A stretch of 64,000 nucleotides of DNA from Candidatus Omnitrophota bacterium (GTDB taxonomy: Bacteria > Omnitrophota > Gorgyraeia > Gygaellales > Profunditerraquicolaceae): the NCBI GenBank assembly GCA_041662125.1, contig JBAZTA010000004.1, positions 64,343-128,342 of the forward strand, written 5' to 3'. This document shows positions 1,369 through 33,649 of this stretch, piece by piece (the first letter of the stretch is position 1; each line of letters starts with the position of its first letter). Below the pieces are notes generated by a model. The model was not told the DNA's origin. It saw nothing but the letters and a program-made list of their open reading frames with translations, and searched no databases. The position numbers and the translations under genes are program-made.

Positions 1369-3057
1369 CTAAGCCACCTTACTATTCTTACTCTTTAACT
1401 TAATCGAAGGGTTTACCCTAAGCCCCTTCTTTTTAACATTACGCCCCTGAGACCTGTGACCCGTGACTTTTCTATGGTATTCCTGCAACGACTTAACACC
1501 CAGATTCTCTTTAACCAGCGCCTCAATCCCGTTGACCGTGGCCTGCGCTCCGGAAATCGTAGTCGTGTAAGCGATATTATAGGTGATAACACAGGAACGG
1601 ATCTTAACTTCATCCTGGCGGGGGATCCTTCCCGAAGGAGTATTGATCACCATTTGGATTTTGCCGTCTTTCATAAAATCAACCACGTTCGGCCTGCCCT
1701 CGGCTATCTTCGGAAGGATCTTTACGGAAATATTGTTTTGTTTGAGTGCCGCGGCAGTGCCGGAAGTAGACAAAATATGAAACCCAAGATCCTGAAGTTT
1801 CTTGGCGATAAAAACGATCGCGCGTTTATCCTTATCCCTGACGGAAATAAAAACATTTCCGCTGCGGGGAAGCTTCTGGCCCGCAGCAAGCTGGCTCTTG
1901 ACAAATGCCCTGCCGAAATCAACATCGATCCCCATGACTTCACCGGTCGATTTCATTTCCGGACTCAGGATAACATCGACTCCCGGGAAACGGTTAAACG
2001 GAAAAACTGATTCTTTTACCGCGACGTGTTGCGGAATAATCTCCTGAGTAAAACCGAGATCCTTAAGCTTTTCACCCAGCATAACCTTGGTTGCCAGTTT
2101 TGCCAACGGCACGCCGATCACTTTCGAAACAAACGGGACAGTCCGTGAGGCGCGGGGATTTACTTCCAAGACATAAACCTTATCATCTTTGATGGCGTAT
2201 TGCACATTCATAAGCCCTAAGACATTCAACTCTCGGGCCATCTTATAGGTCGATTCCCTGACTTTATCCAACAGGTCTTTCGATAAGGTATACGTCGGAA
2301 GCGTCATCGCGGAATCTCCGGAATGAATTCCTGCCTCCTCAATATGTTCCATAATGCCGCCGATAACAAAAGACTCCCCGTCACCGATCAAGTCCACATC
2401 AACCTCAATAGCATCTTCCAGGAATTTGTCTATCAAAACAGGGTGGTCACCGGAAACACGGGCTGCTTCAATAATGAATTTCTCCAGCATGCTTTCTTCA
2501 TAGACGATTTCCATTGCCCGCCCGCCCAGGACATACGACGGCCTGACTAAAACCGGATACCCTATTTTGCGCGCCACCTGGGAAGCCTCCTCATAATTAA
2601 ACGCCGTACCGTTCTGCGGCTGCAGGAGGTTTAATTTCTCAAGCATCTGTTTAAATCTTTTTCTATCTTCAGCAATATCGATAGCGTCAGCGCTGGTCCC
2701 CAGTATATTGACGCCTGCTTTACGAAGCGGTACCGCCAAATTAAGAGGGGTTTGCCCACCAAACTGGACGATCGCTCCCATCGGCTTTTCCGCTTCAATG
2801 ATCGCCATAATATCTTCAAACGTAAGCGGCTCAAAATAGAGGCGGTCGGAGGTATCATAATCAGTCGATACGGTTTCAGGATTACAATTTACCATAATGC
2901 TCTCCACTCCCTCTTCCCGCAGAGCATAGGCGGCATGACAGCAGCAATAATCAAATTCGATCCCCTGGCCGATACGATTGGGCCCACCTCCCAGGATCAC
3001 AACTTTCTTTTTTGGAGTATCGTTTAATTCTTTTTTATTTTGATGTTGATCCTGCAC
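1369..3057 (-). CDS. carB: Carbamoyl-phosphate synthase large subunit, C-terminal half only (second ATP-grasp plus MGS-like domain). This is a split carB.
   Basis: [26 protein letters not shown]...[24 protein letters not shown] aligns to E. coli CarB from residue ~553 onward. The C-terminal MGS-like domain is present. Length 562 aa against ~1070 aa for a full CarB. Confidence 0.9.
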
Positions 3058-3334
3058 AAAAACCTCCTAACCTCATGATTTATTATATGGTCACCGGCAA
3101 CCGAACACCTTTTAAATTTGTCCCGCCTCGTAAGATGTGTAAAAATTCTCTTCGATAATTTTTGCACACTCGGCGGGATAATTTGGCAATACTATTGCCG
3201 AGGCAAATTTATGCGCCTGGCGGGAATTAAGCTCCACACGCTTTTATCTAGCGCAATCCTTCGAAGCTACACCGCAGCTTTACCTGTCGATTAGCGTAGA
3301 AGGGCGAACCTTTTCCCCGCGTATTTTAAAGTAG

Positions 3335-3406
3335 TGCGCCTGGCGGGAATCGAACCTGCACACCCAGCTCCGGAGGCTGGTGCCCTATCCTTTGGGCCAC
3401 AGGCGC
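3335..3406 (-). tRNA. tRNA-Arg (anticodon CCG).
   Basis: The reverse complement folds as a cloverleaf: acceptor GCGCCUG/CAGGCGC, D-arm GCCCAAAGGAUAGGGC, anticodon loop CUCCGGA (CCG), T-loop UUCGAUU. No encoded CCA. Confidence 0.85.
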
Positions 3407-3407
3407 A

Positions 3408-4649
3408 TTAAAATAAACTCAATTGCTGCTCTTGGGCTTCCGGTTTTGAATCTTTTCCGCCAAAAATCGAAATGACACCATACTCTCCGTCATAACCTGC
3501 TTTAATACTGACTTTCCCTTCGCGTACCCGTAACACCCCTTCGGCAATACGTTTAGGCAAGCCTCTCTGCAGCTCTTCCCGGGAAGCCCTCAACAATATA
3601 TCAAATTCCGTGCCGAATTTTGCCACCAGGCTCATATATTCACGCTCAACAGAAACAGAAGCCTTCGCTACTCCTTTTGCTTCCGCAATGATCTCATCAA
3701 AGGGGATCAAGCTCTTAAAAGGGACAGTTATTTTCGGCACATACCCTTCCGGCCGGTCTGCAAGCTGCGCAACACGATTCATTACCCCGACAGTAACCGG
3801 TTTTCCGCACTTTGGGCACTTCCCCTTATTCTTTTTCGTTTCTTCCGGTGATAAACGGCTTTCGCAGAGGCGATGCCCGTCAAAATGATATTTCCCTTCT
3901 TCAGGAAAAAACTCTATCGTGTATAAAAACCTTTTATTATCTTTAGTCCTTAAAACATCACGGATCGTTTTGTAATCCAGCTCGCAATTGAAAACATTTG
4001 CCTCACGGCCTATCTTTTGAGGAGAATGAGAATCGCTGTTGGATACCAGGCTGAAGCGGTCTAAAGCGCTTAACCGCCAATTCATCGCCGGGTCACTCGA
4101 CAACCCCGTCTCCAGGGCGAATATTTTTGGAGCCTGGTCCTCAAAACAATCTTCTATCCTATCAAATCCCGACATAGAGCCGAATACAGAAAACCAGGGA
4201 GTCCAGATATGCCCGGGAATAACCATGCAATTTTCATCAATATCAAAAACAATGCGCGCAAGTTCTGCCGCATCCAGGCCTAAGATCGGACGGCCGTCCG
4301 ATGCCAGGTTCCCGCAGCGGGAAAGCCTCTGGTTTATCGTATCGGTTGTTTTAAACGAAGGGCTTATTACTATAGTATGGACGCGATACGTCCTGTTGTT
4401 CTTGGAATAAATACTGCTGATCTCGGATGTTAAAATAAAATAGATACCGTTATATTTAAAGAGCCCGTTTCCCAGGTCTTCAAGCTTATTCTTAAGCTCC
4501 TCAAGCCACAAATGATAGGTAAAATCCCCGGTTCCCATCAACGTAACACCTTTAAGCTTGGCCCATTGAGCAATATGTTCAACGTCCATATTACGGCTGG
4601 TAGCCCGGCTGTATTTAGAGTGGATATGAAAATCAGCAATAAATTCCAT
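3408..4649 (-). CDS. PHP-domain nuclease with an internal Cys4 zinc finger (endonuclease Q-like, TIGR00375-like).
   Basis: N-terminal FHIHSKYSRATSRNM PHP motif. Central CESRLS...KCPKCGKP zinc ribbon. Length 413 aa, similar to archaeal/bacterial EndoQ. Confidence 0.55.
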   Translation of the reverse strand: MEFIADFHIHSKYSRATSRNMDVEHIAQWAKLKGVTLMGTGDFTYHLWLEELKNKLEDLGNGLFKYNGIYFILTSEISSIYSKNNRTYRVHTIVISPSFKTTDTINQRLSRCGNLASDGRPILGLDAAELARIVFDIDENCMVIPGHIWTPWFSVFGSMSGFDRIEDCFEDQAPKIFALETGLSSDPAMNWRLSALDRFSLVSNSDSHSPQKIGREANVFNCELDYKTIRDVLRTKDNKRFLYTIEFFPEEGKYHFDGHRLCESRLSPEETKKNKGKCPKCGKPVTVGVMNRVAQLADRPEGYVPKITVPFKSLIPFDEIIAEAKGVAKASVSVEREYMSLVAKFGTEFDILLRASREELQRGLPKRIAEGVLRVREGKVSIKAGYDGEYGVISIFGGKDSKPEAQEQQLSLF

Positions 4650-7949: not shown

Positions 7950-8002
7950 GATCGTTATTTTCGTTTAGTTCGTTAATGTCGTTAGTATCGTTTCCCTTTA
8001 CG

Positions 8003-8212
8003 TTCGCTTACGCTCCTGAGAGACTCTGTTTTCCCTCGCGTAAACGCTTGAAAATTTCGCAGAAATTTTCTACGCACGCTTCGGGATATTTCGGCCATAC
8101 AACTTACGTTCGCTTATGCTATTGAGAGGTTCCGTTTTCCCTTGCCTAAACGCTTAGTAATTTCTTCGAAATTACTTGCGCAGGCTTTGGGATTAATTCG
8201 CGGACGCTAAAG
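8003..8212. repeat. Two tandem ~105-bp imperfect direct repeats (~75% identical), each holding an internal perfect palindrome.
   Basis: R1 (8003-8105) and R2 (8108-8212) both start ttacgttcgctta. The internal palindromes are gaaaatttc-gca-gaaattttc in R1 and gtaatttc-ttc-gaaattac in R2, which are compensatory variants. Confidence 0.6.
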
Positions 8213-8285
8213 TATAGCTTTAGCGTCCGCGAATTAAAAAAAATCCCAACGGCTTATTACGCAGTTGGGATATGATTTTTTAAGG
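8198..8285. terminator. A 16-bp perfect hairpin followed by a second hairpin flanked by A8 and T-rich runs. It could terminate either strand or act as the pyr leader attenuator on the minus strand.
   Basis: ttcgcggacgctaaag-tata-gctttagcgtccgcgaa, then aaaaaaaa, then atcccaac-ggcttattacgca-gttgggat, then atgatttttt. Confidence 0.5.
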
Positions 8286-8354
8286 TCGTGGACCATATTT
8301 CTCTACCTTGCCAGCTTCTCATGAGCCGACTTAAAGGTCTCCTGTATTTAAATA

Positions 8355-8384
8355 AATATACCACCTCTTGGCGTGTTTGTCAAG
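8355..8384 (-). promoter_or_regulatory. Sigma70-like promoter reading leftwards into the pyrR-pyrB-pyrC leader.
   Basis: Minus strand: TTGACA (8384-8379), 18-nt spacer, TATATT (8360-8355). This would give a ~400-nt leader ahead of pyrR. Confidence 0.4.
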
Positions 8385-8538
8385 GTAAATAGCGGCATTA
8401 ATAAGACCGGGACTTATCAATAATAAAACGCGACCGTTCAAGTCCCGGTCTTAGTTATATGGATTAAGTTCAGTTAGCGGGTGACGAGGCATGTTTCGAG
8501 CGATGACGCGAGAAACATGCCTCGGCAGGACCCGCTAC

Positions 8539-8617
8539 CTCGTAAAAATAAAAAGAAGGGGTGCTCAAGAGACGTCCTATGGGGGCTGATAAACCAAAGG
8601 GCGGGAACACCCCTTCT
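8539..8617 (-). terminator. Intrinsic terminator of the giant gene.
   Basis: On the minus strand, just after the TAA stop at 8625-8627: stem AGAAGGGGUG, a ~44-nt loop, stem CACCCCUUCU, then UUUUUAUUUUU. Confidence 0.6.
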
Positions 8618-8624
8618 ATACTAC

Positions 8625-11600
8625 TTATTGTTCTATTGTCACCGGCTCCTTAGCCGTAAACGCGATCTTTGTAAGGGCAACCTGCAAGTCACCTGCCGGC
8701 TTATCCGATTCCAATAAAGCCAGGAAATCCCTGAAAGCCGATTCAGTAGGTTTAAGTTGATCTTCTTCCAGCCTTAAGATATCCGCGATGCAGGCAAGCA
8801 CTTTTTCAACCTGCGGGTTAATATCATCTTTGAAACAACAAGCCTCTAAATATTCCTTGATCCTGTCGCTGGCGGGAATAATCCCTGCCTGGATCATATC
8901 TTGTATTTGCTGCCATTCTTCATTGAGATTAACATTCTCGAAACGGCTCAAAGGCGGTACCACATTCATCCCCGGGACATTCATCGGCTGCGTGACAATA
9001 GGCAACGCTCGCAAATCAATACCTCCGGGCTTAAGCGGGCTTGAAGATAACAATTTGACTGAAGAACCGGATTTTTTGAGTTCAAATGATCCAGCTAACT
9101 CTTTGTTTAAAACATTTCGCACCTCTGCTTGCCCCTGAGGATCAACAATAATATCTACTGCATTTTCTGAATACGGTATTTTCTCCATGACTTTAACACC
9201 GGTGGAATTTAAATATTTTTCAATATCAGTTACATTCAAAACCCCCGCTATTTCATTTGCGGGATAAATAATGAAAGCATTCCAGTCGCCGCTATTCATA
9301 AAAGGCCCTAAAACGCGTTCAATGTATGCGTGCGTCTTTTCTGCCATAGGCGCCAAATGAGCAAGCGCCATTTCCCCGGTCTGCGTATTATACCCTGCGA
9401 CCGCCATACAGGTGATCAAACTAGCGATGCAAGGCTTTTGTCCTATTCCCTGGGTTTTATCCGGGGCTACAATATCAGGGGTTAACTTCAATTGTTCCGC
9501 GACACCCTTCATTTGTCCTTCCCGCCTCTGCTGTCCACCTGCCTCTTGCATCATTTCTCCTACACTTTCCACACCCTGGGTCAACGCAACTTCAAGGAAT
9601 TGTTGATAAAGCTTTACCATATTCTCATCAGTGTCGGCTTTCCTAAGATTTACTTCCTGGCTGCCATAGACCCAACGTATCAACCATTCCTGATGGCCCG
9701 ACAAAGACGCTTGCGTATCTTCAAAAAGGCCTAACCTGCCCGGCACGCCATTCTTTTCAACAGAGTGATATAATGAGTGAAATTCTTTAAACTCTTCCAT
9801 AAGAGATCCCAAAGAAGGGATATTTGATAACGGCGACCCCGCAGATTGATTTTTTGAAAGAACAAAAATAGGAGGAGCTTGATTATCCGGGCTTGCATTA
9901 ATTCTTCCTATGAGCATATAAGGCTCTACCAACTTCAGGTCTGCGAAATCCCCCCATTCATTATGCAAAAATTCGAAAACAGCCGGGAATATTTCATCTT
10001 CCCTTAATTCTCCCCGCGCCCTTAATTCTTCAGACATAAGATTGCAAGCCTTACTTATAATTAAGGAAAAACTATTGAGAAGCTTAAACGGCGCGACGCT
10101 ATAATCATAGTTCTCGATTATTTGAGCGACTTCTTGATGATACTCAACATATACCGCAATATCTATATCGCTGAACGATGAATCATAAACACCCTTAAAT
10201 CCGTTATTTTTAAGCCTGCCTCCGGTCATATAAAGCCTCATTTCACCGGGATCCGTAATACCTAATTCTTTGAGAAAGTTCTGCGCCTCTTCTAAAATCA
10301 ACCGCCCGGCCCTTAATAAATTATCGCCGCTAAAAACAGTGACAAAACTACGAGCGGAACTCCTGGCTATCCGGTCGGAAGAATCAAACTGCCCCCGGGT
10401 AAAGGAGAGCATATCCTGTATCTTGGCTTTAACCACAGCCTCCTCTTCAGGAGTTACTCCTTCAAGAAAGCCGGAATTTTCTGTATTAGCTATCGGGCTG
10501 CTGGTGGTTTTCGTCATCTTAAACATGATCCGACGCGATAATTCCTTGTCCCAAGAATGAACCGCAAGCTCTACAGCCCTTAAACCGGGAGGAACAAATT
10601 TCCGGCTTTCCAGCGTATTACCAACTATAGCGATCCCGATATCTGATAAATGATCCTCAATGCCGTTTAAAAGACGCGTATAATCTGTCACGCCTATTTG
10701 ATAAGCTCCCTCCATTTTAACCTGCGAATCATATACCGCATTGGGCGAATTAAAATAGATAAAATCATACTTACCGCTTACTGTTTCAAATTCCTTCTCC
10801 TTTTCCACTTTATGCACAAAAACTTCCGCATCATTGCTCCCGGGGAATAAAAGGTTAAGATTAAATTTCGTATTCTCCACCGCTTCTTGAAGTATATCAA
10901 TGGCATCAATGCGTATGCGTAACCCCGCGTCTTTTACCTGGGCATAGGCAGTCAACGCATCGACCCCGGTCCCCGAACCGATCACTAATATACGAATACT
11001 ATCTCTACCCTGAGACTTCAATTGTTTTATAACAGCCGGCAATGCTTCTTTATCTTTAATAAACTCCGCGGAATATAAAGAAAGTCCATAGTCAAAAACC
11101 GGAGAATAAACAGCCGTATGGCGCGCCATGACCCCTTTATACATAAGCTTTCTTAACATGCGGTAAGCTTCCTGGTCACGGGTACCGCCGATAACCTGAT
11201 ACTCATTTTCTTTAATTATTTCTTCTAATGCGGCAATTTCCTCTTTTTCTTTTAACACCGGCCTGCGCAAAATCCGGCTTATATACCCTGAGATAATCGG
11301 CGAGCCGGCGGCAACGGTATCAGAACTAAGATTTTCAACTCTCTTCAACGCATCTACCACAACACCAAGGATCTCAGAAAGCCCTAATAAGCTTATTTCG
11401 GTATCCAGGCGCATAAAATGAACATTTTTAAAAAACGCATATTTTTCCTGTAACTTTACAATATTTTCTTTGTTGATGAAAAAGGTCCCTCCCCTGAAAT
11501 CAAAAACAATATCAACTTGTCCCGGCTCATACGCTGAAAGTTCTTTTAAAAATTTATCTAACGTTGCGCCTGTATTGATATCGTTTTCACAGAGTATTAC

Positions 11601-14600
11601 TTTTTTCCCGCGTAATTCTTCCGGATTGATCGGACGGCCGGTACGGCTGTCTTTCCTCCAGGCAAAATCAGGCCGGCCCACCCTTGTTTCCCCGTTCACA
11701 TGAACATCGGCTAACGTTGTCGCAAGCCCCATTAAATCAAACATGGCCGCAGTAAAAGCGCCTGCGCCAGCAATACCAATAGCAATATCATATACCTGGT
11801 TCAGATCCCGCAGCTGTTTTGATTGCGTATCGTATCGCAAATCATAAATTGCAAGAAGCGACTTTAGCCACTTGTAAACAAGGATCTCTGAATCAGCTAA
11901 ACCAAATCGTTTTTTCATATACGACTGTTCAACAAAACCGTTCACTATCTTTTCCTTTATTTCATCATTAAACATATCTTGATGCACAAGGTACCGGAAT
12001 TCCAACCCCTGGATTATAGTATCGTAATTATCTCCTTCATTATTCTTTATATCGTTTTTCAAGTTATCAAATCTTATCTTTACCTGCAACAAGTCCTCAG
12101 CCGAAACCGCTGATTTTATATCAGCCATCAGTATCTCTAACCGGGGAGAATATTTTTGAAGTTTTTCTTTTTCGCTCGCGGAGGAACTCGCGAGATTGCC
12201 TTGAGCCAACGGCGAGCCGGCTGATCTTGTTTCAAACCGCTCTGCTCTCCTGAGCCATTCGGAAATCTTCTTTTGATCGCCGTCACCGACTTCCACTGCA
12301 CCGTTATCTTTTGAATGCACAAGCAATATCTTGCGCTGCTGACCGAGCGCCTGTAAAAATTCAGAGCCTTCCACTGCTTTTTGCAATTGATCTACGGTAA
12401 GATGAAAACCCGCCGGAAAACCATTTTCTGAGATAAGGATTGAGTTTTCTCCATTGGGGTCCTGAGTTTTTAGTTTGTCCGCTGCCCAGGTAAAATCATC
12501 CATAGAGCTGGTATCAACAACATAGCCAATATTGCCCATGTTAGAAGTAACCACAAAACCATAGGTAGCAATAGGGTGGCTTTGATGATTACGAAACACG
12601 ATTGTTACACCTAACCCTTTATCAATAAATTCTATCTCATCTTTCCCGTTTTTCTCAAAACCACGCTCAACTTTCTCATTCTGTAATAATGCTCTTGCCC
12701 ATTGCCGGGAGAAGCCTTGAGCCTCTTGGAGAGTCCTCTTTTCATAAGTTTCTCCACCAAGCAAGTAAGCCGCGATGACTTCTATTAAGTCATCTTTTAC
12801 TTCTTGCGTCATAATTAAATCGTATGTATTGATTTTTCCATTAGCCTTTCTTACAATGTATTGCATGTTTTTTCCCTGGCCCTCTTGTGCCGCTTCAATT
12901 TTCGATTCAGAGAATTGCTCAATAATGAATTGCACAAATCCGGCATTATGGTCAGTGTGATTATGCGTCAATATCCAACGAGAGGGGAGTAATTTTTCCG
13001 CCTTGAGATTAACGTATGCTTCAAGTGAAGGATCCACAAAAATACTTTCTGTTCCGATATTGATAAGAAAATTGGTCACATCTTCTTCTGACAAGGCATC
13101 ATTGACGCCCATAAACGTAACCGACACCGTACCTGCAGGACGATTGTGATATCGATCAAACTGTTCCGGCGTAAAATTCCCTGTTTTATGGACGTGTTCA
13201 TCCTTATTTGTATCGCGTTTACGAGAAACTATCTCCTGCTCTTTTACCTCATTGCCATAACGCTCTATAAATTTATAATTTTCTCCATCTTTTACAACCT
13301 CGACCTCCACATCTCTACCATCTTCACTTAAAACCGTAAATTTCGTCTTGTTTTCCAAGTTTATAATGTTATACGGATTATCTTTTTCCAGTGCCAAGGC
13401 GCTCACCAAAGAAGCGACAAAGCCGTTACTTTTCTTGATCGCAAGGTCTAAAAGCATCTGCACAGCCAAAGCCTCTCGTTCATTATTAACGACAATATAG
13501 GTCGGCCTGATTGCCAAGTTGTCCACCAGTCGAAAACCCTTGGCCTTCAACGATTCATCATTTTTTGGCACAGAAGAAACACGAGAAGCCTCGTAAAATA
13601 GATTACCGAATAAAATAAACTGCAGGTCAGCGCCGTCATAGCCTTGTCCAAACCCAGGGATAACAATTTGTGGGGTTTCCTGCTGTTTATTACTAAATGA
13701 GGGGGAGCCGTTTACAACGACCAGCTTTGATAGCGCAAGCTCACTTCGCGATCCCTCTTCCGCCTTATTTTGCAGCGGCGAGCCGGACGATCTCTGTCTA
13801 AGATTATAACCAAAAACCTGCGCTGCGAACGAAGCAGATTCGCTCAAAAATGCTTCCCGCAATGATGGGTGATTGCGTTTCTTGAGCTCTTCCTGAGCGA
13901 ATTCCTCAATAACTTCACCGGAGACTCCTACGGGCATTTTCTTGACGATCTCACCTGCCATCTTTTTTGCAACGTTGGATGTACAATCTAAAAACAACCT
14001 TGCAACTATTTCCTGGCCGCTGAAATTTGCAAAAGGTGTTAAAGCGATAAAGTTATTTTTTATTTCTTCGAAATTTGCTGAACGGATAGCGGCGTAAAGA
14101 AACTGGCGCAGCGGCATTTTCTTGTAAGCCGCTAATTCCATACATAACCCGGCAAAAACGCTTGTTTCTCCAACAATATCCAAGACTTTCTTTTCCTTTG
14201 AGTAGCATAAATTCTCCGCGGGAATATCCATTATATTATCGCCGCTGACAATATAACTGCAAAGCTCGTCGCGAAAACGCCTGAATCCTCGCGTTAGTTC
14301 CTCGCCCTGTTCATTAATATTCTTAAGGGAGCCTGTCCTTTCAAGGAAAAACCATATAATGTGGCTTAATTCATGCATGATATTTTCCTTCTTGAAATCA
14401 CCGGCTGATTTAATGATAAAACTGGGCTCCTGGGGCTTTGAACGCAGATGAGCAACTGCCTGGCTGCTCGCAAGCACTCCTCCGACTTTTTCCGAAAACT
14501 GCTTATAATAACCGGCGTCTATCTCTAAAACCGGAATTCCCGCGTATCGGGTAAAGCTAATCTTCCCCTGCGCTTCGGCAATAAACGCATCGGCTTTATC

Positions 14601-17600
14601 TGTCGTAATCCCTTCTGAAACTAAAAACATCCTCAAAAGCTCCTGGGGCTGTATAACTTCCGCTTGAGCATTATTTTTCCTTAATTCAACCTCTAATTTC
14701 TCAACGGCTTTTTGATAGAAATTTCTGAGGCCGGCAGGAAAACCTGACTCCGCGATAAGTACGAGTATTTTTGCTTCTTTTTCTGCCTCTGAACTATTTT
14801 CTAAAAGGATCTCCAGCGCCCCGCTATAAAAGCGGCCATGGAAATCCGCAAGCTTCTGTAAATATCCAGGGTTCAGTGGACTTTTATTTTGCAGTGGCGA
14901 AGCGGATGCTTTCGCTGATACCGCAGATCCGGTGGAGAATGGCTGCTGCAATAAAACTTCGCGGTAATCTTTTAAGCTTTGAATATCCTCCTTAAGCATT
15001 TCTCTATCAGATGTATCCAATGAATCGCCAAACCCAACCAATATCCTTGCCAACGCTTTCTCAAGCTTATCAATGACACTTTTAACCTGTTCGACTTTTG
15101 AAGGTTCCCCCTGATACTTTGCTTTTAGCGGCCAGCTTTCCTGATCATATACAAACAGAGGTTCAAGATATTCATTTTTTAAATCGCGTAACCTGCTGAT
15201 CGCGACAATTGCTTTTTCTTTCTGCACAACTTCCCGCTCAAGACTTTGTACCATTTCAAGCCGCGGGATGCTTCCGTAAATCGAAGATTTATCTCCCATG
15301 CTCAATAAAACAGGATTAAACGCCCATTCGTTATTCAACCCAAACGGGTTCTCCTTAACAGGTTCGCGAAAAGAAACAAACCCATCAAATGAAACGCTCA
15401 AATCGCCTCTTCCCGCGGGTAAAATCACTAACCCAACCTCAGATGATCTTTCAATTTCAGGCTCAAACTGATCAGCAGCAGCATCGATAGTAAACCATTG
15501 AGACCCCAGCTTGAATAATCCATACGCATGATACCCTGGCTCTCCCTTATTTTTACCCGTATTAACCAAAACCGCGCTTTCTTTACCAAGGGCTTCCTGC
15601 AGCCACTGGATAACATCCCCGTTCCTAAGCCAGCAGTCATAGCGCACCGCGCTACCAACATCACCGTCTCTCGAATAAGCCTCTTTTTTATCTTTTTCTT
15701 CTAATTTCTCTTTTACTGCCTTAAGCGCAGCCAACACCTTATCCAGCGCTTGTTGATCAACCCCCTTTAAATAATCTCCCCAGCGCGCCATAAAATTTTC
15801 AGGAGTAACCTTAACTCCTTGCAAAAAGTTCCCAAATGTTTGCCAATCAAGGGACACCTCAGCAGCCTCTAAAGAAGCATCTACCGGCGAAGAAGAATTC
15901 TTCACAATCGGGGTTGATTTTAACACTCCGCTCAATTCTTTTTCAATAATGCCCCGGGTATTATTCATATCACCTGACTCGATCATTGCTTTAATCGCGC
16001 GGATCAAAGGCTCATGCTCAACGATCTGACCGTGCCCCTCTGACCCCAGGGCAATCGTAAAAGCTCTTTGTAAATATTCTTGATATTCCGGAGTACGGGG
16101 AGCGTGATAATCATCTTGCACCGCAAAAGACAAAAGGGAATTGACGGAATCCTCAAATCTTGCTTCCCGTCCGCGATTATTCATCTGTGTATTTCCCGGA
16201 TCCTGCGCGCGGGCTATTTCGCGCTGGTCCTGAAATCCTACTAACGCGACAAGCCCCATGGCTATCTGCGGCAGGACCTTAGATGCGCCTGTTGCTTTTA
16301 TCGACCCAAAAGGCGTAGCTGCCAGCTCAATAACCGAGGTTTTACGAAACATCTCTGCGGCTTGGCCACTTGCATTAAGTACTCCATCCCGCAGAATTTT
16401 AGCGCCGTAAGAATGGGCAACAATAACCGTTTCATTCTCCCGATCAGTACCGATATAAAGACTAAGCTGCCTCGATAAAAGAGCGGAAACATCATTGATT
16501 TTATCGAAATAGTTGTATGAAAAAACAGCCAAATTAAATTTACCTTCGAATTCGGAAAGAAATTTATTAAAATAGGATGGAGAGCCATCAGCGCCATGAA
16601 TGAATACAACTGTCGGCCTATCCTGTTGAAACGCGCCTACCTGATATAAGCCCGGAACGCGGGGGATATGCATACTCAGTACGTCTCTGAGGCTCACCTG
16701 GCTTTGCTGTGGCGACTCTATCCGCCCGGAAACACTCAAAGGATAGTTTTGTTTTATTAACGGCCCGCACCCCAATGTCGAAATAGACAACAATACTGTG
16801 CCAAACAATAAAACCGCTGTTTTCTGATACCATGAAGCTTGGCTCAGGGGAGAGGCAGCTGAATCGCTTATAGGAGAGCCTGCTGATCGCTTTTGAGTTA
16901 CTTGTATGCGGTATAAAGAACCATTCTCATCAATAACTAATAAAGCCTTTCTATCAGAAGTAACGCGCAGCATATCATGGTTAGCAGTAAATTTTCCTGT
17001 TTCTCCAACGTATCCCACATATAAAAGCTTCTTTCCTTTATAAATTATATCTCTGGAACCCGTCATCACGAGAATGTTGTCTTTGAACCCATCAAGAAAG
17101 CCTTGAGGATTGGGGCCCTGCACGTTTAAAGTAAGTCCTTGGTATTCGGCTAATTCGGGGCTGACCACATATTGCAAAGTAAGTTCCCAAACTTTTCTGG
17201 CTCTTTCATAATCAAGTATGCGCGAAGATTCATTCCACTCTTTTTTTAAATCACTTTGCGAATATTGGCGCGCTGCGTCTTGCGTTTGTTGTCCGTATGA
17301 TTGGCCTTGTACCGGTGAGATCAAAGGACTAACGGGGTTTATAAGCAGCGTCACAGCCAGGATAGCAGCTGACAAGAATTTACTGATCCCGTTCTGCCCC
17401 GGAGCTACCAATGCTGAAGATGCTTTTACCGGCGAGCCGAAAGATTGATTTTCTTCCGTTACAGCTTCTGCGGCGCCTGAAACAAAATAATGCCTGATCC
17501 CATCAGCAATATTCTTCGATCTTTTCTTAAAAGAGCCTTTCTCCTCCATCAGTTTTTCAACGGTATCATTCGTAACCCTCGGGTCCTGATATTGATAAAG

Positions 17601-20600
17601 CCGCTCCTGAAGCTTTTTTAGCTGCTCAGAGGAGAGCAGGACCATGAGTCGAGGCAATATCTTTTCCACATTAGACGCAGAAACCCCATAATAAAAGAGC
17701 ATTTCAATAATAAACTCATCAAGAGAGCCCGGGATAGTTTTGCCCGGGTCAATTATCCTCAGCGCCCCCGTTTCCTTCTCAAGCATAATATTATTACTAT
17801 GCAGGTCCAAAGACATCCTGCCGTCAAGGACAATTTGCTTATTCAAAACGAAAAAATACCTGGCTAAGAACTCGCTCACGTTTTTTGCCAGCGTTTCAGT
17901 AATAATATTCTTATTGGGCTGCGTTTCACTCAATATCTTATAATCCTTATCCCATCTCAATAAAGCATCCAGCAGCTCAACTAAAGAATCCAAAAAAGCA
18001 GCATTTTTTGCAACCATTAACTGCACCGTCCTTATTTTCATAAGGGTGCTTTTTACTTGCTCTGCGGCATCTCCCGTAGTTATACGCTCTTGCCTCAACA
18101 ATCCTTGCACAATATTTCTTAATTCTTTGTTGCCGGCGATTAAGCCGCACAATGTATCGACCTGCCCCAGCGTAAATCCATCCACAAACTCTTCAACAAG
18201 CACTGTCAGGTATTCGCCGGAATCAAATTTCGTCTCGGAATACTCATATCCACCGGGGGCCGAAGAATTAGCCTGCAAATAAAACACTTTCCCCAGATTG
18301 GGGACAAAACCCGTGCCCCAAAGATCGTTCAGGACCTCTTCTTCTCCTTCTTCAAACATCGCCTCATTTTGAGCCGGCAATTTCAGCGCTACGCTGAAAG
18401 CCTTAACCTCTCCATCATTATTAACGATATCGACCTTAAAAGCATGTTTATTCGCTCCCGACGCAAGATAACCTATGGAAAGTTTTGCTATATCAGCGAA
18501 TGTAAAATTAAAACTAAGCTTTGCCAGAATATCATTTATACTATCCGGCTTATATTTCGCCAGAAATTGTGTGACTTTTTCTGCCTCCCGAGCAACTTTC
18601 CCCTGTTCTGCCGCAGACAAGACGGCCCCTTCCCCCCATGTTCCTCCCGGAGAGGTCATCCTCGATTCAATAATAGGCCCCAGATTATCGGCAGAATCGC
18701 TCATCGGCGAGCCGGCGGATTTTCTTGATGAAAAAAACGATAAGTCAGCGATTGGCCGGTTATCCCAGGACTGAAGATCATTCTGGGATGTCCACTCTTT
18801 AATGGAAGCCGCCATTTGACGGGCACCGGACTCCAAGAATTTCCAAACCATATCCGGAGTAATCGCCAATAGTTTTTTATCATTAAGGGAAACATCACGG
18901 TATTGCGCATTTTCAGGCCATAGCTCTTTCTTATGAATAATATTTTGGATATCTTCCTTATGGCTCAGAATGAACGCGCTTATTTTTTCAGCTGCCTGGA
19001 TATACGCTTCCTTATTCCCCCGCAAACGGTAACCTTCCCCATTATAAGAATGTTCAATATCCTGAAAGTCTCTTTGGTAATAAAGCGGAGCCAAAGCAGT
19101 ATCAAAATCAAAAGGTATTAATGCGCCGTCTTTACTAAGATATTCCCGGTCATTTTGATATAACAAGAGGCCGCAATACATGTCAAGAAGGGCATTATTT
19201 TTTAACGCGGCTATGTTTTGCGATTCTTCCTGGTCACCAAGTAACCTGCTTTTTACCGCGGCCGCTCCCGGGATATATTCCGTCGCAATTATACTCTCTG
19301 AGCTCTCATCCAATGTGAAGACGCGGACCAGAGGCAATAAGACCGAAGAGCCCTGGAACGATCTATCTTTCAGCATTAACGCAAGCAACTCGCGGGCGAA
19401 CAAAGACCTTTTCCCGTTCTCCCGCAAAGTATAATAAATTGCCGTATCTTCGCTTTGAACCATCATTGCGGTATTTATTTCATTTTTTGCGACAAAGAGT
19501 TTTAAGGATCCCGAAGCATTCTCTTCTCCTTCAATTGCGATAACATTAAAACCTTTACTCGAATCCAAAGACAAGCCCTTAACGAGTGATTCGATGTTTT
19601 GTTGTTTACCTGACCCGGGGACCTGGGCAATAATCCATATCTTTTTCCCATCACCGATTGTTTGCCGCCAAGGATCTTTTGGCAATACTGTAGCAGGAAC
19701 ATATCCGTTCTTTAGAGCCAGGGAAACGGTTTTTTCATCAGCAATGGGCGAAGAGCTCTTTTTTACTTTTACAGCCGGCTTTATAGGAGGTGTTTTGACC
19801 GGCGCCTTAAGAGACGTTTTAACAGGCGCCTTAATTGAAGCTTTCACAGGAACAGGAGCTGCTTTCACAGGGCCGGGAGATTTTTGTTGAGCAGGCTGAT
19901 CAACCTGTCCATTCTTGAGGGCAGCCTCAGCTACTGAGGCTATAACATAATAATCAAAAGATTCTTGCGGAACTGCTTTCTTAAAAACGACCATGGGGCC
20001 TGCGTTATAGATAATGCTGCTACGCTGCGACCTGGAAAGATTAAAAAAATGAGGAGATTTATGGCTCAGGAAATCGACATATCTTTGAACCCGAAAACAG
20101 TAAATAGCCGCCCCTAATTCATAATGCGCCTTTGCAGGGAGCTTATCCATCGTTGCCCCGAACGGGTTTTTTTGTTTGGCATCCTTTTTGTATTTCTTAT
20201 ATATATCCCCATATTTCTTGAATGGCTTTAATATTTCATATGCGGCCCTTTCTTCTTTTGTCATTTTATTTGTTTTATTTACTTTGTCATTTTCTTCTTT
20301 TTGCGCCAATTCGTCTATAAACTGCATTAAATCTCTAAAAGCTATCTCTCTGATCTGCATCAACCCTTTAGCCCCTTGAGAAGAGGTAGCTGTCAGGACT
20401 TGCCCTATATTTTCAATACCGGCAATGATCTCCAAATGCACAGGCATTACTTCTTGCGAAATAACATTGCTTGCCTTTCCTTTTTCTACCATATTCCTAA
20501 AAACTGTCCGGGCCTCTTTCGACAATTTATTTCTAACAACCCCGACAACTGCGGCAGACCTCTGAAGTACTGCTTTATTGATACCGGTGAAATTATTCGC

Positions 20601-22040
20601 TGGCAAAGCCTGAGGAACGGGTTTTCGCACAACCTGCGTATTTATCAAATCCTGATGAGCTAACTGGGAAGGAGAAAAAAGCATTGCTACAAACAAACCG
20701 ATCGAAGAAAACTTTTTTATCTGGTCACCGACATTTTGTAAGAATGATCTCTGCTGCTTCGCCGGCGTCTTGGCAATCGCGGAAGAACTGGCATTTCCTT
20801 CTTGAGAGACGGATGCAGGTTGGTCTATAAATACCGGAACATCGCTTTTTAACTCTATTCGAACAGAGGGATGTTCTACTGTCCCGCCTTCTACGAAAAA
20901 TGATATGCCTTTATCCTGGAATCGTGCAAGAGGGGAACTGCCTGCGCGTGAATGCCCGACAATCGAAGATACCACAAAAGACGACGCCCCGGGGAAAGGC
21001 ACCTGAAAGTCGGTTAAATTCATCCCTCCGGAAAAATAACTTCTGATCGACTGCCCCATCGGAGTAGAAACAGGGATTTTAATATTATATTCGCCGTCTT
21101 TAAACGACCTTTGATACTCCTTAAAATAGGTAGTCTTTGACCAGGGGGTTTGTGACGTCAAACCGTTTAAATTCTTTTTATCGATCATCCAGGAATATAA
21201 TCCGCCTTTTCCGTAAAAACGCGCCTTAAACCATTGCGCCATGATCAATGAATAATATACCTGCCTTAAAGGAGCATATCGTTTGGCAGTATTAACGTCT
21301 TTGGTAATTTTAGGGATGATGCGCTCTCTGATCAGTTGCGAAGCGTATTCATTTAAAGCCTTAAGCCGGTCATCCTCAAAATTGTAAACAGCCGATCCCT
21401 TAAGGTAATCCTGCTCCAGCATTACTTTAAGCGTTGCTTTATAGATATAGGCATTATCATTTGCCTCGCGAATGATGATCTCATTGGGAACGATCCACGG
21501 CCTGGTTAAGGTGGGAATAGTTATATTATCCGAGCCTAAAAGCTCTTCTGCTTTCTTGTATAATTTATCCCAATACTCTTTTCCTTCAGGGGTTTCAGGA
21601 GAAGTAAATTGCGCGGTATCTTTTTTAAGCTGAAGATCCGCTTCCAGAAGGACTTTACCGAGATCGGTCTTAGCCAATAAAGGGTCGATGATATTATCTT
21701 CGGCGTCCGGCCGTAAGTTAACCCAAAAAGAGTCATTGGGCAGGCTAATACCGATAAAGAAATAATTCAAGATTGTTTTAGTCGTGTCCTCAAGGGCAGG
21801 TTTATTTAAATTCCTGGCGTCGCCTTTATCTAAAAGAAGGCTAAAGTTATTGTTAAGGTTATCATAGGAAAGATAGCGTAAGTGCAAGGGCCGGAATTTG
21901 TCCTGGATGAGAGTATTACGCAGCTGCGCGAAATGGCCGGAAATATCCAACTGCCCGGCAATTTGCGCAAAACCGGACTGTTCAAAGAAAAAGCAAAAAG
22001 ACAGAAAAATAGCGATACATCTTATAACTTTTCTTGGCAT
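8625..22040 (-). CDS. Giant secreted multidomain protein (4471 aa) with an N-terminal signal peptide and multiple unrelated enzyme-like modules.
   Basis: A single uninterrupted ORF. The N-terminus MPRKVIRCIAIFLSFCFFFEQSGFAQIAG is signal-peptide-like. Motifs recognised: kinase-like DLHSNNIML...RIIDPG (~17745-17810), alpha/beta-hydrolase AHSYG (~16405), HELSH (~14360), MBL THNHTDH (~12950), PRTase-like VILCENDINTGAT (~11580), SAM-MTase ILVIGSGTGVD (~10970), nucleotidyltransferase GG...SDIDIAVYV (~10150-10230), and an APVK repeat (~19740-19880). Confidence 0.85.
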   Translation of the reverse strand: MPRKVIRCIAIFLSFCFFFEQSGFAQIAGQLDISGHFAQLRNTLIQDKFRPLHLRYLSYDNLNNNFSLLLDKGDARNLNKPALEDTTKTILNYFFIGISLPNDSFWVNLRPDAEDNIIDPLLAKTDLGKVLLEADLQLKKDTAQFTSPETPEGKEYWDKLYKKAEELLGSDNITIPTLTRPWIVPNEIIIREANDNAYIYKATLKVMLEQDYLKGSAVYNFEDDRLKALNEYASQLIRERIIPKITKDVNTAKRYAPLRQVYYSLIMAQWFKARFYGKGGLYSWMIDKKNLNGLTSQTPWSKTTYFKEYQRSFKDGEYNIKIPVSTPMGQSIRSYFSGGMNLTDFQVPFPGASSFVVSSIVGHSRAGSSPLARFQDKGISFFVEGGTVEHPSVRIELKSDVPVFIDQPASVSQEGNASSSAIAKTPAKQQRSFLQNVGDQIKKFSSIGLFVAMLFSPSQLAHQDLINTQVVRKPVPQALPANNFTGINKAVLQRSAAVVGVVRNKLSKEARTVFRNMVEKGKASNVISQEVMPVHLEIIAGIENIGQVLTATSSQGAKGLMQIREIAFRDLMQFIDELAQKEENDKVNKTNKMTKEERAAYEILKPFKKYGDIYKKYKKDAKQKNPFGATMDKLPAKAHYELGAAIYCFRVQRYVDFLSHKSPHFFNLSRSQRSSIIYNAGPMVVFKKAVPQESFDYYVIASVAEAALKNGQVDQPAQQKSPGPVKAAPVPVKASIKAPVKTSLKAPVKTPPIKPAVKVKKSSSPIADEKTVSLALKNGYVPATVLPKDPWRQTIGDGKKIWIIAQVPGSGKQQNIESLVKGLSLDSSKGFNVIAIEGEENASGSLKLFVAKNEINTAMMVQSEDTAIYYTLRENGKRSLFARELLALMLKDRSFQGSSVLLPLVRVFTLDESSESIIATEYIPGAAAVKSRLLGDQEESQNIAALKNNALLDMYCGLLLYQNDREYLSKDGALIPFDFDTALAPLYYQRDFQDIEHSYNGEGYRLRGNKEAYIQAAEKISAFILSHKEDIQNIIHKKELWPENAQYRDVSLNDKKLLAITPDMVWKFLESGARQMAASIKEWTSQNDLQSWDNRPIADLSFFSSRKSAGSPMSDSADNLGPIIESRMTSPGGTWGEGAVLSAAEQGKVAREAEKVTQFLAKYKPDSINDILAKLSFNFTFADIAKLSIGYLASGANKHAFKVDIVNNDGEVKAFSVALKLPAQNEAMFEEGEEEVLNDLWGTGFVPNLGKVFYLQANSSAPGGYEYSETKFDSGEYLTVLVEEFVDGFTLGQVDTLCGLIAGNKELRNIVQGLLRQERITTGDAAEQVKSTLMKIRTVQLMVAKNAAFLDSLVELLDALLRWDKDYKILSETQPNKNIITETLAKNVSEFLARYFFVLNKQIVLDGRMSLDLHSNNIMLEKETGALRIIDPGKTIPGSLDEFIIEMLFYYGVSASNVEKILPRLMVLLSSEQLKKLQERLYQYQDPRVTNDTVEKLMEEKGSFKKRSKNIADGIRHYFVSGAAEAVTEENQSFGSPVKASSALVAPGQNGISKFLSAAILAVTLLINPVSPLISPVQGQSYGQQTQDAARQYSQSDLKKEWNESSRILDYERARKVWELTLQYVVSPELAEYQGLTLNVQGPNPQGFLDGFKDNILVMTGSRDIIYKGKKLLYVGYVGETGKFTANHDMLRVTSDRKALLVIDENGSLYRIQVTQKRSAGSPISDSAASPLSQASWYQKTAVLLFGTVLLSISTLGCGPLIKQNYPLSVSGRIESPQQSQVSLRDVLSMHIPRVPGLYQVGAFQQDRPTVVFIHGADGSPSYFNKFLSEFEGKFNLAVFSYNYFDKINDVSALLSRQLSLYIGTDRENETVIVAHSYGAKILRDGVLNASGQAAEMFRKTSVIELAATPFGSIKATGASKVLPQIAMGLVALVGFQDQREIARAQDPGNTQMNNRGREARFEDSVNSLLSFAVQDDYHAPRTPEYQEYLQRAFTIALGSEGHGQIVEHEPLIRAIKAMIESGDMNNTRGIIEKELSGVLKSTPIVKNSSSPVDASLEAAEVSLDWQTFGNFLQGVKVTPENFMARWGDYLKGVDQQALDKVLAALKAVKEKLEEKDKKEAYSRDGDVGSAVRYDCWLRNGDVIQWLQEALGKESAVLVNTGKNKGEPGYHAYGLFKLGSQWFTIDAAADQFEPEIERSSEVGLVILPAGRGDLSVSFDGFVSFREPVKENPFGLNNEWAFNPVLLSMGDKSSIYGSIPRLEMVQSLEREVVQKEKAIVAISRLRDLKNEYLEPLFVYDQESWPLKAKYQGEPSKVEQVKSVIDKLEKALARILVGFGDSLDTSDREMLKEDIQSLKDYREVLLQQPFSTGSAVSAKASASPLQNKSPLNPGYLQKLADFHGRFYSGALEILLENSSEAEKEAKILVLIAESGFPAGLRNFYQKAVEKLEVELRKNNAQAEVIQPQELLRMFLVSEGITTDKADAFIAEAQGKISFTRYAGIPVLEIDAGYYKQFSEKVGGVLASSQAVAHLRSKPQEPSFIIKSAGDFKKENIMHELSHIIWFFLERTGSLKNINEQGEELTRGFRRFRDELCSYIVSGDNIMDIPAENLCYSKEKKVLDIVGETSVFAGLCMELAAYKKMPLRQFLYAAIRSANFEEIKNNFIALTPFANFSGQEIVARLFLDCTSNVAKKMAGEIVKKMPVGVSGEVIEEFAQEELKKRNHPSLREAFLSESASFAAQVFGYNLRQRSSGSPLQNKAEEGSRSELALSKLVVVNGSPSFSNKQQETPQIVIPGFGQGYDGADLQFILFGNLFYEASRVSSVPKNDESLKAKGFRLVDNLAIRPTYIVVNNEREALAVQMLLDLAIKKSNGFVASLVSALALEKDNPYNIINLENKTKFTVLSEDGRDVEVEVVKDGENYKFIERYGNEVKEQEIVSRKRDTNKDEHVHKTGNFTPEQFDRYHNRPAGTVSVTFMGVNDALSEEDVTNFLINIGTESIFVDPSLEAYVNLKAEKLLPSRWILTHNHTDHNAGFVQFIIEQFSESKIEAAQEGQGKNMQYIVRKANGKINTYDLIMTQEVKDDLIEVIAAYLLGGETYEKRTLQEAQGFSRQWARALLQNEKVERGFEKNGKDEIEFIDKGLGVTIVFRNHQSHPIATYGFVVTSNMGNIGYVVDTSSMDDFTWAADKLKTQDPNGENSILISENGFPAGFHLTVDQLQKAVEGSEFLQALGQQRKILLVHSKDNGAVEVGDGDQKKISEWLRRAERFETRSAGSPLAQGNLASSSASEKEKLQKYSPRLEILMADIKSAVSAEDLLQVKIRFDNLKNDIKNNEGDNYDTIIQGLEFRYLVHQDMFNDEIKEKIVNGFVEQSYMKKRFGLADSEILVYKWLKSLLAIYDLRYDTQSKQLRDLNQVYDIAIGIAGAGAFTAAMFDLMGLATTLADVHVNGETRVGRPDFAWRKDSRTGRPINPEELRGKKVILCENDINTGATLDKFLKELSAYEPGQVDIVFDFRGGTFFINKENIVKLQEKYAFFKNVHFMRLDTEISLLGLSEILGVVVDALKRVENLSSDTVAAGSPIISGYISRILRRPVLKEKEEIAALEEIIKENEYQVIGGTRDQEAYRMLRKLMYKGVMARHTAVYSPVFDYGLSLYSAEFIKDKEALPAVIKQLKSQGRDSIRILVIGSGTGVDALTAYAQVKDAGLRIRIDAIDILQEAVENTKFNLNLLFPGSNDAEVFVHKVEKEKEFETVSGKYDFIYFNSPNAVYDSQVKMEGAYQIGVTDYTRLLNGIEDHLSDIGIAIVGNTLESRKFVPPGLRAVELAVHSWDKELSRRIMFKMTKTTSSPIANTENSGFLEGVTPEEEAVVKAKIQDMLSFTRGQFDSSDRIARSSARSFVTVFSGDNLLRAGRLILEEAQNFLKELGITDPGEMRLYMTGGRLKNNGFKGVYDSSFSDIDIAVYVEYHQEVAQIIENYDYSVAPFKLLNSFSLIISKACNLMSEELRARGELREDEIFPAVFEFLHNEWGDFADLKLVEPYMLIGRINASPDNQAPPIFVLSKNQSAGSPLSNIPSLGSLMEEFKEFHSLYHSVEKNGVPGRLGLFEDTQASLSGHQEWLIRWVYGSQEVNLRKADTDENMVKLYQQFLEVALTQGVESVGEMMQEAGGQQRREGQMKGVAEQLKLTPDIVAPDKTQGIGQKPCIASLITCMAVAGYNTQTGEMALAHLAPMAEKTHAYIERVLGPFMNSGDWNAFIIYPANEIAGVLNVTDIEKYLNSTGVKVMEKIPYSENAVDIIVDPQGQAEVRNVLNKELAGSFELKKSGSSVKLLSSSPLKPGGIDLRALPIVTQPMNVPGMNVVPPLSRFENVNLNEEWQQIQDMIQAGIIPASDRIKEYLEACCFKDDINPQVEKVLACIADILRLEEDQLKPTESAFRDFLALLESDKPAGDLQVALTKIAFTAKEPVTIEQ

Positions 22041-25380: not shown

Positions 25381-27813
<2,433 letters not shown>

Positions 27814-27847
27814 ATCTGCCGTGTTGGTTTAGTTCGCCTTGGCGAAA

Positions 27848-30627
<2,780 letters not shown>

Positions 30628-30629
30628 TG

Positions 30630-31724: not shown

Positions 31725-31883
31725 TTACCCCCAGGTTACAGCCGCCCTATTGCTTTTAATATATTAAAAGATTAATACCGTAATAGCCGTAATAATAGTG
31801 TGGTTGCTTATCTGTGCACACAGCCATAATAGATATGTTTCAAGGATGTTACAAGAAAAATAAACACGGGATAACTTCTGTAT

Positions 31884-33620: not shown

Positions 33621-33649
33621 TTGACTTGTGTTATATTTGTGCTATAATT
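33621..33649 (+). promoter_or_regulatory. Sigma70 promoter for rpmH.
   Basis: TTGACT (33621-33626), 17-nt spacer, TATAAT (33644-33649). The RBS aaggagag lies 8 nt before the ATG. Confidence 0.6.

Follow-up and report, generated by a model that had tools for sequence, protein, structure and literature searches.

What is the short Ser-Pro peptide that recurs along a giant protein of a Candidatus Omnitrophota bacterium, and why does it recur? The protein is the product of a 4,471-amino-acid (aa) open reading frame (ORF) of 13.4 kb, which occupies positions 8625-22040 (stop codon at 8625-8627) on the minus strand of the 64,000-nucleotide (nt) stretch of contig JBAZTA010000004.1 analyzed here; this whole stretch is called the window, and all nucleotide positions refer to it. 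The ORF product is identical to NCBI entry WDL87_07435 (P0001, 100% identity), a hypothetical protein of a Candidatus Omnitrophota metagenome-assembled genome (MAG). The repeated peptide had been pointed out in an earlier note on this DNA, and the observation is real, non-random, and more general than first noted. The answer that we favor, with a probability of roughly two in three, is that the motif is a conserved junction element of a large Omnitrophota family of capped modular proteins, that its DNA serves as a microhomology site for cassette turnover, and that its peptide is read in trans.

The giant ORF contains 14 in-frame copies of x-[A/S]-[G/S/A]-S-P-[L/I/V/M], with a local consensus of [K/R/Q/N]-x-[S/A]-[A/S]-[G/S]-S-P-[L/I/V/M]. 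The nine occurrences claimed by the earlier note were all found in this one ORF, in frame and within 1-3 nt of the coordinates given, and five more had been overlooked (aa 763, 1729, 2050, 3847, and 4333, which are copies 2, 6, 7, 12, and 14 below). The spacing of 200-740 aa claimed at that time was incorrect, and adjacent copies actually lie 186-522 aa apart, apart from one doublet separated by 8 aa. All copies are on the minus strand and are numbered here from the N-terminus, with the positions of their [G/S/A]-S-P codons given after the semicolon. Copy 1 (AGSSP-L, aa 367-371, 20928-20942; 20931-20939) stands just after the conserved N-terminal domain, or N-cap, and copy 14 (SSSPL in LLSSSPLKPGG, aa 4332-4336, 9033-9047; 9036-9044) stands 4 residues before the GGIDL that opens the C-terminal domain, or C-cap. 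The exact DNA core GCCGGCTCGCCG encodes copies 3 (AGSPM, aa 1109-1113, 18702-18716; 18705-18713), 10 (AGSPL, aa 3274-3278, 12207-12221; 12210-12218), and 11 (AGSPI, aa 3578-3582, 11295-11309; 11298-11306). Copies 5 (AGSPI, aa 1720-1724, 16869-16883; 16872-16880) and 6 (AASPL in SAASPLSQ, aa 1728-1732, 16845-16859; 16848-16856) form the doublet, and copies 8 (SASPL followed by QNK, aa 2379-2383, 14892-14906; 14895-14903) and 9 (SGSPL followed by QNK, aa 2752-2756, 13773-13787; 13776-13784) mark the left and right edges of a variable slot. The others are copies 2 (SSSPI in KKSSSPIADE, aa 762-766, 19743-19757; 19746-19754), 4 (FGSPV, aa 1534-1538, 17427-17441; 17430-17438), 7 (SSSPV in KNSSSPVDAS, aa 2049-2053, 15882-15896; 15885-15893), 12 (TSSPI in TKTTSSPIAN, aa 3846-3850, 10491-10505; 10494-10502), and 13 (AGSPL, aa 4067-4071, 9828-9842; 9831-9839).

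Linkers rich in Ser, Ala, and Pro might yield such a peptide by chance, by low-complexity composition, or through an internally duplicated domain, and the frequency and residue order of the motif refute this explanation, whose probability we regard as negligible. For the string [GSA]SP[LIMV] we counted 14 occurrences in the giant ORF and one in the remaining 39 window ORFs (≈14,800 aa), and for a stricter six-residue form 10 and none, respectively; the motif is not similarly frequent in the other Omnitrophota proteins of the window, a comparison that the earlier note had called for. In 120 homologues of the giant protein, [AS][SG]SP[LIVM] was found 288 times compared to 6 expected from composition (48-fold), and in 114 independent representatives 118 times compared to 2.9 expected (40-fold), whereas substitution of A, S, or G for P in the same frame gave merely 2-4 times the expectation. 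Order matters as well: ASSP[LIVM] has 172 occurrences compared to 0-19 for each of 11 other residue orders, and AGSP[LIVM] has 76 compared to 0-5 for each of 23 other orders. In about half of the homologues the commonest 4-mer is ASSP, AGSP, AASP, or SSP[VIL], and the family consensus is [S/A]-A-[S/G]-S-P-[V/L/I/A], with flanks that carry little information. Internal domain duplication was rejected, since self-BLASTP of the giant protein was empty; the intragenic duplication that had been suggested earlier is therefore not seen between the modules, and the short junction alone recurs. What recurs is a peptide motif with a fixed residue order, which composition does not explain.

The protein that carries the motif belongs to a family of capped modular proteins that is essentially confined to Omnitrophota and is defined here, having no description in the literature searched. 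Database searches returned 227 homologues of 2.5-7.4 thousand aa, labeled Omnitrophota almost throughout, each of which matches just 7-11% of the query length at 50-75% identity. Their Pfam content differs widely and includes glycolytic enzymes, methyltransferases, GNATs, kinases, phosphoesterases, and HEAT repeats. The N-cap (aa 1-345, 21006-22040, minus strand) consists of a signal-peptide-like start and a conserved domain ending ...IRSYFSGG; it is present in 119 of the 119 listed homologues and, by profile search among 1.84 billion proteins, in 7,720 representatives of clusters at 50% identity, always at residues 1 to ≈350. The representatives found in this way are ≈450 to 7,391 aa long, and the profile match starts at residue 1 always. 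The ≈320-aa N-cap domain has no fold match in PDB and no protease-like fold. The C-cap (aa 4338-4471, ≈135 aa, 8628-9029, minus strand), with the sequence GGIDLRALPIVTQP...EWQQIQDMIQAGIIPASDRIKEYLEACC..., is found in 116 of the 119 homologues and in 82 of 114 further representatives. It opens with (K/P)GGIDFRALPIVTQP, corresponding to the pattern (K/P)GGID[FLM]RxLP. The C-cap also contains conserved Cys residues (EYLxxC...C) and has no database annotation, and in several relatives it is directly preceded by one or two additional degenerate GGIDxS... copies.

Among GTDB species representatives we counted 415 family loci, with titles that name Omnitrophota or Omnitrophica almost throughout and with several loci per genome, including three each in JBAZKL01, CAZPNW01, and JACQXK01; a further family member, P0106 (locus tag WDL87_08895), belongs to the MAG that contains the window. 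Such paralogues within one genome are potential donors for module exchange. The shortest complete members consist of the N-cap, one cargo module, and the C-cap, as in P0225 (827 aa), where a single methyltransferase has an SSP motif on either side.

Homology places the motif at the edges of the independently recurring cargo modules and beside both caps. The N-cap is followed by the first copy, and 3-12 residues separate the last copy from the C-cap in most members; in P0035, P0032, and P0044, 8 of 8 Pfam domains fall between consecutive motifs. Every weak domain match in the query (Pfam, NCBIfam) is likewise confined to one inter-motif segment. On the minus strand, these segments include a module at aa 1114-1532 (17445-18701) that P0002 has as one block at 83% identity, with a weak choline/aminoglycoside-kinase-like match at aa 1315-1431; a module at aa 2757-3272 (12225-13772) with a weak metallo-beta-lactamase-fold (MBL) match at aa 2991-3067; a module at aa 3282-3578 (11307-12197) with a weak phosphoribosyltransferase (PRTase) match at aa 3472-3512; and a module at aa 3583-3845 (10506-11294) with an S-adenosylmethionine-dependent methyltransferase match at aa 3670-3802.

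The edges of BLAST blocks shared with relatives fall at motif positions for P0002 (query aa 1121-1532 and 2752-4471), P0003 (aa 2012-2387, 2728-3281, and 3565-4068), and P0004 (aa 3597-3839). The first P0002 block begins just after copy 3, with similarity already from SSPMS, and ends before copy 4; homology to P0003 ends at aa 767 by copy 2 and again within copy 13, and the P0004 block ends at copy 12. Among 1,465 unique edges of cargo blocks across the family, 18% have a motif at a distance of at most 5 aa compared to 2.8% at random, and the median distance from edge to motif is 25 aa compared to 114 aa at random. The earlier proposal that the motifs sit between enzyme modules was thus borne out by Pfam and NCBIfam positions, BLAST block edges, and cap boundaries, and the same motif was found at module edges in homologous giant proteins, by Pfam positions in three of them and by BLAST edges across the family.

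Predicted structure is consistent with this placement. Of the 14 query copies, 12 reach the 80th-98th percentile of disorder propensity, and copy 1 falls in a loop of the AlphaFold2 (AF2) model (aa 337-370) with a predicted local distance difference test score (pLDDT) below 50. In an AF2 model of aa 2740-3860 built from a six-sequence alignment, four motifs are in predicted coil of the lowest pLDDT (21-34), which weakly supports a linker location. Many family members carry a second short conserved piece, GG(T/S)xx(D/N)P...I(E/K), after the N-cap core; in the query it is predicted as a beta-hairpin (aa 372-399, pLDDT 50-60), and copy 1 lies in the disordered loop before it (aa 338-371, 20928-21030). 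Two strongly hydrophobic segments, at aa 1552-1574 (17319-17387) and 1744-1762 (16755-16811), each follow a motif within ≈20 aa, and one of them ends in a lipobox-like ...LSISTLGC that resembles a lipoprotein N-terminus stranded in mid-chain. Directly upstream of copy 2 lies a Lys/Pro/Ala/Val-rich repetitive stretch (PVKAAPVPVKASIKAPVKTSLKAPVKTPPIKPAVKVKK, aa ≈716-761, 19758-19895), with a similar stretch at the same place in P0003; it caused a spurious PADLOC match, and searches of the giant protein against PADLOC, PHROGs, and PDB sequences gave marginal matches at most.

If motifs bound modules, close relatives at one chromosomal site allow the fate of single modules to be followed. The gene order glmS, TP_methylase, giant gene, pyrR, pyrB, pyrC is conserved between the window and the contigs of P0002 and P0003 (locus L003), and it is partly visible at L001 (P0035) and L002 (P0030), where the flanks are shorter and cover only some of the neighbors. 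Whole modules distinguish the giant gene of the window from that of L003, even though the two loci share PyrB at 95% and TP_methylase at 88% identity. Missing from P0003 is the query module at aa 2388-2752 (13785-14879, minus strand), and the junction there has one hybrid motif. In the query this module stands between copies 8 (SASPLQNK, left) and 9 (SGSPLQNK, right), which form a 24-nt direct repeat with 21 of 24 nt identical (repeat family D5); the hybrid copy in P0003 resembles the left one in GCT and the right one in CCG...AAG. Also absent from P0003 are aa 3282-3578, where both query junctions read GCC GGC TCG CCG as a 12-nt direct repeat and P0003 has one copy.

In L005, a third orthologue, query aa 1092-2374 is kept at 82% identity, the slot at aa 763-1110 differs again, and the slot at aa 2380-2753 holds a different module, which resembles that of P0002. 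The contents of the latter slot in the query, P0003, and L005 therefore represent three states of one motif-delimited slot among close relatives. Family-wide, 54 clean insertions were found, 12 of which have a strict motif at both ends compared to 0.26 expected (at most 4 in 500 shuffles), and many show two motifs around the insert and one motif in the relative. Orthologues at a syntenic site differ by the in-frame presence, absence, or replacement of whole modules, with breakpoints inside the 12 to 24 nt that make up the motif DNA. Of the functions that the earlier note had left open, a hotspot for module-shuffling recombination is backed by these breakpoints inside motif DNA.

The motif is conserved beyond its residues. 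The DNA core GGCGAGCCGGC has three exact copies (11299, 12211, and 18706) and one copy with a single mismatch (13777), all at motif sites and none elsewhere in the 64 kb, and 4 of 100 shuffles reach four matches; the identical core that the earlier note had reported in several copies is thus present, and at motif sites only. An unbiased repeat search of the window ranked the motif first among direct-repeat families (7 copies of 16 nt). The conservation of codons that the note had also claimed is real and holds family-wide, but is only partial. In the query, the Ser before Pro is encoded by TCG in 9 of 14 copies compared to 16% gene-wide, TCG-CCG encodes 7 of 14 motif Ser-Pro pairs and none of 16 other Ser-Pro pairs, and the 12-nt cores have a pairwise identity above that of synonymous shuffles (p=0.003). 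Within-gene nucleotide identity of the core exceeded synonymous shuffles across 15 genes (mean z 2.1, p=7e-4).

At 80 loci from different genomes, TCG, the rarest Ser codon in family genes, is used for 48% of motif Ser residues before Pro compared to 10% gene-wide; the corresponding values are 54% and 29% for CCG at Pro, 59% and 26% for GCC at the preceding Ala, and 53% and 30% for GGC at Gly. TCG-CCG encodes 33% of motif Ser-Pro pairs compared to 6.7% of other Ser-Pro pairs. TCG is the leading codon in 22 of 26 genes with at least four copies, and L001, L002, and L080 prefer AGC-CCG. Two origins of this bias were rejected: GC-biased gene conversion tracts, as GC content at third codon positions (GC3) is raised to 0.75 in the four core codons alone and is 0.36 in the flanks, and a genome-wide Chi-like signal, as core 7- and 8-mers are confined in the window to the coding strand of the giant gene.

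A purely DNA-level recombination signal with a functionless peptide would account for the breakpoints inside motif DNA, for the within-gene nucleotide identity, and for GCCGGCTCGCCG, which occurs more often than any other 12-mer (16 copies in 8 genes). However, 169 motif copies are encoded by 117 distinct 12-mers, both motif Ser positions use TCN as well as AGY codons, core sub-words are not enriched elsewhere in the window, and the peptide is kept across N-caps that have diverged to 50-60% identity. The Ser codon families together with the drift of the flanks, and the persistence of the peptide across diverged N-caps, imply selection on the peptide, and a DNA signal alone was already disfavored and appears quite improbable. 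The added synonymous preference, GCC-(GGC/TCT)-TCG-CCG, lies on top of this peptide selection, and recombination-driven homogenization cannot be separated from translational or RNA-level selection as its source.

Another conceivable role is that of a codon-level signal, in which a slow UCG-CCG pair pauses the ribosome at each junction and lets the preceding module fold or be targeted. Pro is a slow acceptor in peptide-bond formation, the overrepresented TCG is otherwise so rare, and the bias is limited to the four core codons, with no rise of GC3 in the flanks. Against a pause stand GCC, GGC, and CCG, which are not rare codons, the AGC-CCG preference of three genes, and the retention of the amino acids through codons outside one synonymous family, as a pause alone needs no Ser-Pro-hydrophobic sequence. 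We consider it unlikely that pausing is the primary role.

In the interpretation that we favor, then, an invariant N-cap is followed by junction, cargo, junction, and so on to a last cargo, a last junction, and an invariant C-cap. The peptide would act as a short linear motif within flexible linkers and be recognized by a factor in trans, and the repeated GC-rich motif DNA would supply microhomology for recombination between junctions, both within the gene and with paralogues. Such recombination may delete, insert, or exchange cargo cassettes while the frame is kept. As to the reader of the peptide, an endoprotease that separates the modules would be our tentative first choice, followed at distinctly lower weight by a modification enzyme or a codon-level pause, each about equally likely.

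Several observations weigh against this interpretation. The motif is not an obligatory feature of the family: at least five copies are present in only 51 of 120 homologues, which therefore makes it a sub-family trait, and with 0-1 copies in 44 of 120 and a motif density that tracks that of the nearest N-cap relative (Spearman 0.63), it is to be regarded as a habit of lineages. The multi-module AF2 model is poor (mean pLDDT 45), and the linker placement therefore depends mainly on homology edges and not on structure. The TCG preference holds also where neighboring codons differ, such that homogenization by recombination alone is insufficient, and 12-24 nt is short for RecA-type recombination. 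A signature like that of target-site duplication was rejected as a general mechanism, as the flanks of adjacent copies are no more identical than those of non-adjacent copies (p=0.2); duplicative insertion is therefore not indicated, and the 24-nt SPLQNK pair at aa 2380 and 2753 is an individual case and not a general duplication signature. Finally, no reader of the peptide, whether a protease, a transferase, or a binding domain, was identified.

The strongest competitor takes the motif primarily as a proteolytic processing site in a polyprotein, whose modules a dedicated protease would free in a layout like that of MARTX toxins or viral polyproteins. A cleavage site would fit a specific, ordered motif at each module boundary and beside both caps, with its peptide under selection, and the signal-peptide- or lipobox-like segments after two junctions (aa 1552-1574 and 1744-1762) would make most sense near a new N-terminus. 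Cleavage is also suspected in publications on giant proteins of Omnitrophota, which state that no cleavage points are known; we count this in favor of processing. By contrast, searches of the giant protein against Pfam, NCBIfam, and PDB sequences gave no protease domain, the N-cap is without a protease-like fold, the conserved neighbors are housekeeping genes, family members that carry an M48 peptidase have few motifs, and many members have none. Processing as the primary role is thus possible but clearly the less probable answer. Somewhat more doubtful still is a composite of these ideas, in which the proteins are cassette polyproteins and the junction is at once an in-frame crossover point among paralogues, integron-like within a reading frame, and a TCG-CCG pause and cut site.

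A post-translational modification site in the linkers, with O-glycosylation or phosphorylation of the Ser before Pro, would explain the invariant Ser-Pro with a small residue before it and a hydrophobic residue after it. In these features the motif resembles the short sequons in Ala/Ser/Pro-rich linkers of bacterial general O-glycosylation, and family cargo often includes kinases, FHA domains, and phosphatases. However, the locus has no linked transferase or kinase, and the Bacteroidota sequon D-[ST]-[AILVMT] is unmatched, with Asp before Ser in 0 of 14 copies. Junctions moreover lie on both sides of predicted membrane segments, out of reach for one compartment-specific enzyme. Modification seems as unlikely as pausing.

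Functionally, the junction element comes nearest to the junction motifs of polymorphic toxins (VENN, DPxGL) and to the MARTX toxin layout, and membership of both groups is excluded. In CdiA (VENN) and Rhs proteins (PxxxxDPxGL), the constant part is set off from the variable part by a short conserved peptide, whose conserved coding DNA probably permits module exchange through recombination and which in Rhs proteins also serves as a cleavage site. The Omnitrophota motif resembles these in that a short conserved peptide borders constant and variable parts, but unlike them it is repeated up to 14-15 times, between many modules and beside both constant caps. The giant protein contains no VENN or DPxGL strings and, by Pfam, no FHA, YD-repeat, or pre-toxin domains; its cargo resembles ordinary enzymes (methyltransferase, kinase-like, MBL hydrolase, PRTase) and not toxins, and the gene downstream is pyrR and not an immunity gene as in CdiA and Rhs systems. 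In MARTX toxins, effector modules lie between conserved repeat regions and are freed by a cysteine protease domain. The giant protein is like them in its conserved termini, its variable series of enzyme modules, and a module content that varies between close relatives. Pfam detected no Peptidase_C80/CPD and no RTX repeats, MARTX cleavage occurs at Leu-X in linkers and not at a fixed motif, and the giant gene here lies in a housekeeping neighborhood near oriC. The analogy to autoprocessed toxins drawn by the earlier note holds for the overall layout alone.

Cellulosomal and other modular enzymes also have disordered linkers with Ser and Pro between independently folding modules, rich in Pro, Thr, and Ser. 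These linkers are compositional in nature and vary in length, whereas the motif here is fixed, ordered, and five residues long, with a synonymous-codon preference. Sites like the viral 2A sequences (D(V/I)ExNPGP) are absent, as the giant protein has no NPGP and the upstream context of the motif is unconserved.

Giant proteins have been described in the same phylum. Archaeovorins are encoded by genes of >90 kb, with proteins of >30,000 aa that carry a C39/S8 peptidase near the N-terminus and SecA DEAD/preprotein-binding domains (West-Roberts et al., 2023, bioRxiv 10.1101/2023.11.21.568195). The present protein resembles the published Omnitrophota giants (10.1101/2023.11.21.568195; 10.64898/2026.06.07.730766) in phylum, signal peptide, few membrane segments, and suspected processing, and the cargo of its family appears to be of a similar kind (methyltransferases, GNAT, HATPase, HEAT repeats, and glycolytic enzymes). 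At 13.4 kb and 4,471 aa it falls below the Archaeovorin size definition, and Pfam and NCBIfam gave no C39/S8 peptidase or SecA-like domain at E≤0.1. Of the Archaeovorin-type cargo, a methyltransferase is present, whereas glycosyl transferases and hydrolases, peptidases, and NUDIX domains were undetected in the giant protein but occur in family members. Neither of the two reports mentions the junction motif, the N- and C-caps, or the synteny, and a search of one literature library returned nothing relevant on the motif strings or on linker or processing signals in Omnitrophota.

The chromosomal site itself lies near the replication origin region, which is contained in window positions 25381-37559, with gyrA (25381-27813), gyrB (27848-30325), dnaN (30630-31724), and dnaA (31884-33218) on the minus strand and yidC (34091-35617), parA (35864-36715), and parB (36696-37559) on the plus strand. 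GC skew changes sign at ≈32-34 kb, and the genes diverge from a gap at 33.2-34.1 kb. The giant gene lies 11-24 kb from this region and is co-oriented with replication. The 675 nt between the giant gene and pyrR (7950-8624) contain no ORF of at least 150 aa and no Rfam match; at L001 and L002, a small 23S_rRNA_IVP (four-helix-bundle) gene stands at this place. Farther away, a 6S (SsrS) RNA match (51528-51687, plus strand, 59.7 bits, above the Rfam gathering score) lies just downstream of pheT, and a T2SSE/PilT-type secretion ATPase gene (40852-41922, plus strand) follows a tRNA-Cys/Leu/Val cluster (40378-40780) and has no apparent relation to the motif.

Work on the giant proteins of Omnitrophota has stalled partly because module limits and the cutting of the chains are not known. 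The analysis newly defines a very large family (7,720 clusters) with two uncharacterized cap domains, and it is unusual for a linker motif to carry a synonymous-codon preference across a whole family. The motif offers a rule, readable from sequence alone, for cutting thousands of such proteins into modules in silico, and it offers a mechanism-level handle on fast cargo turnover at a fixed chromosomal site.

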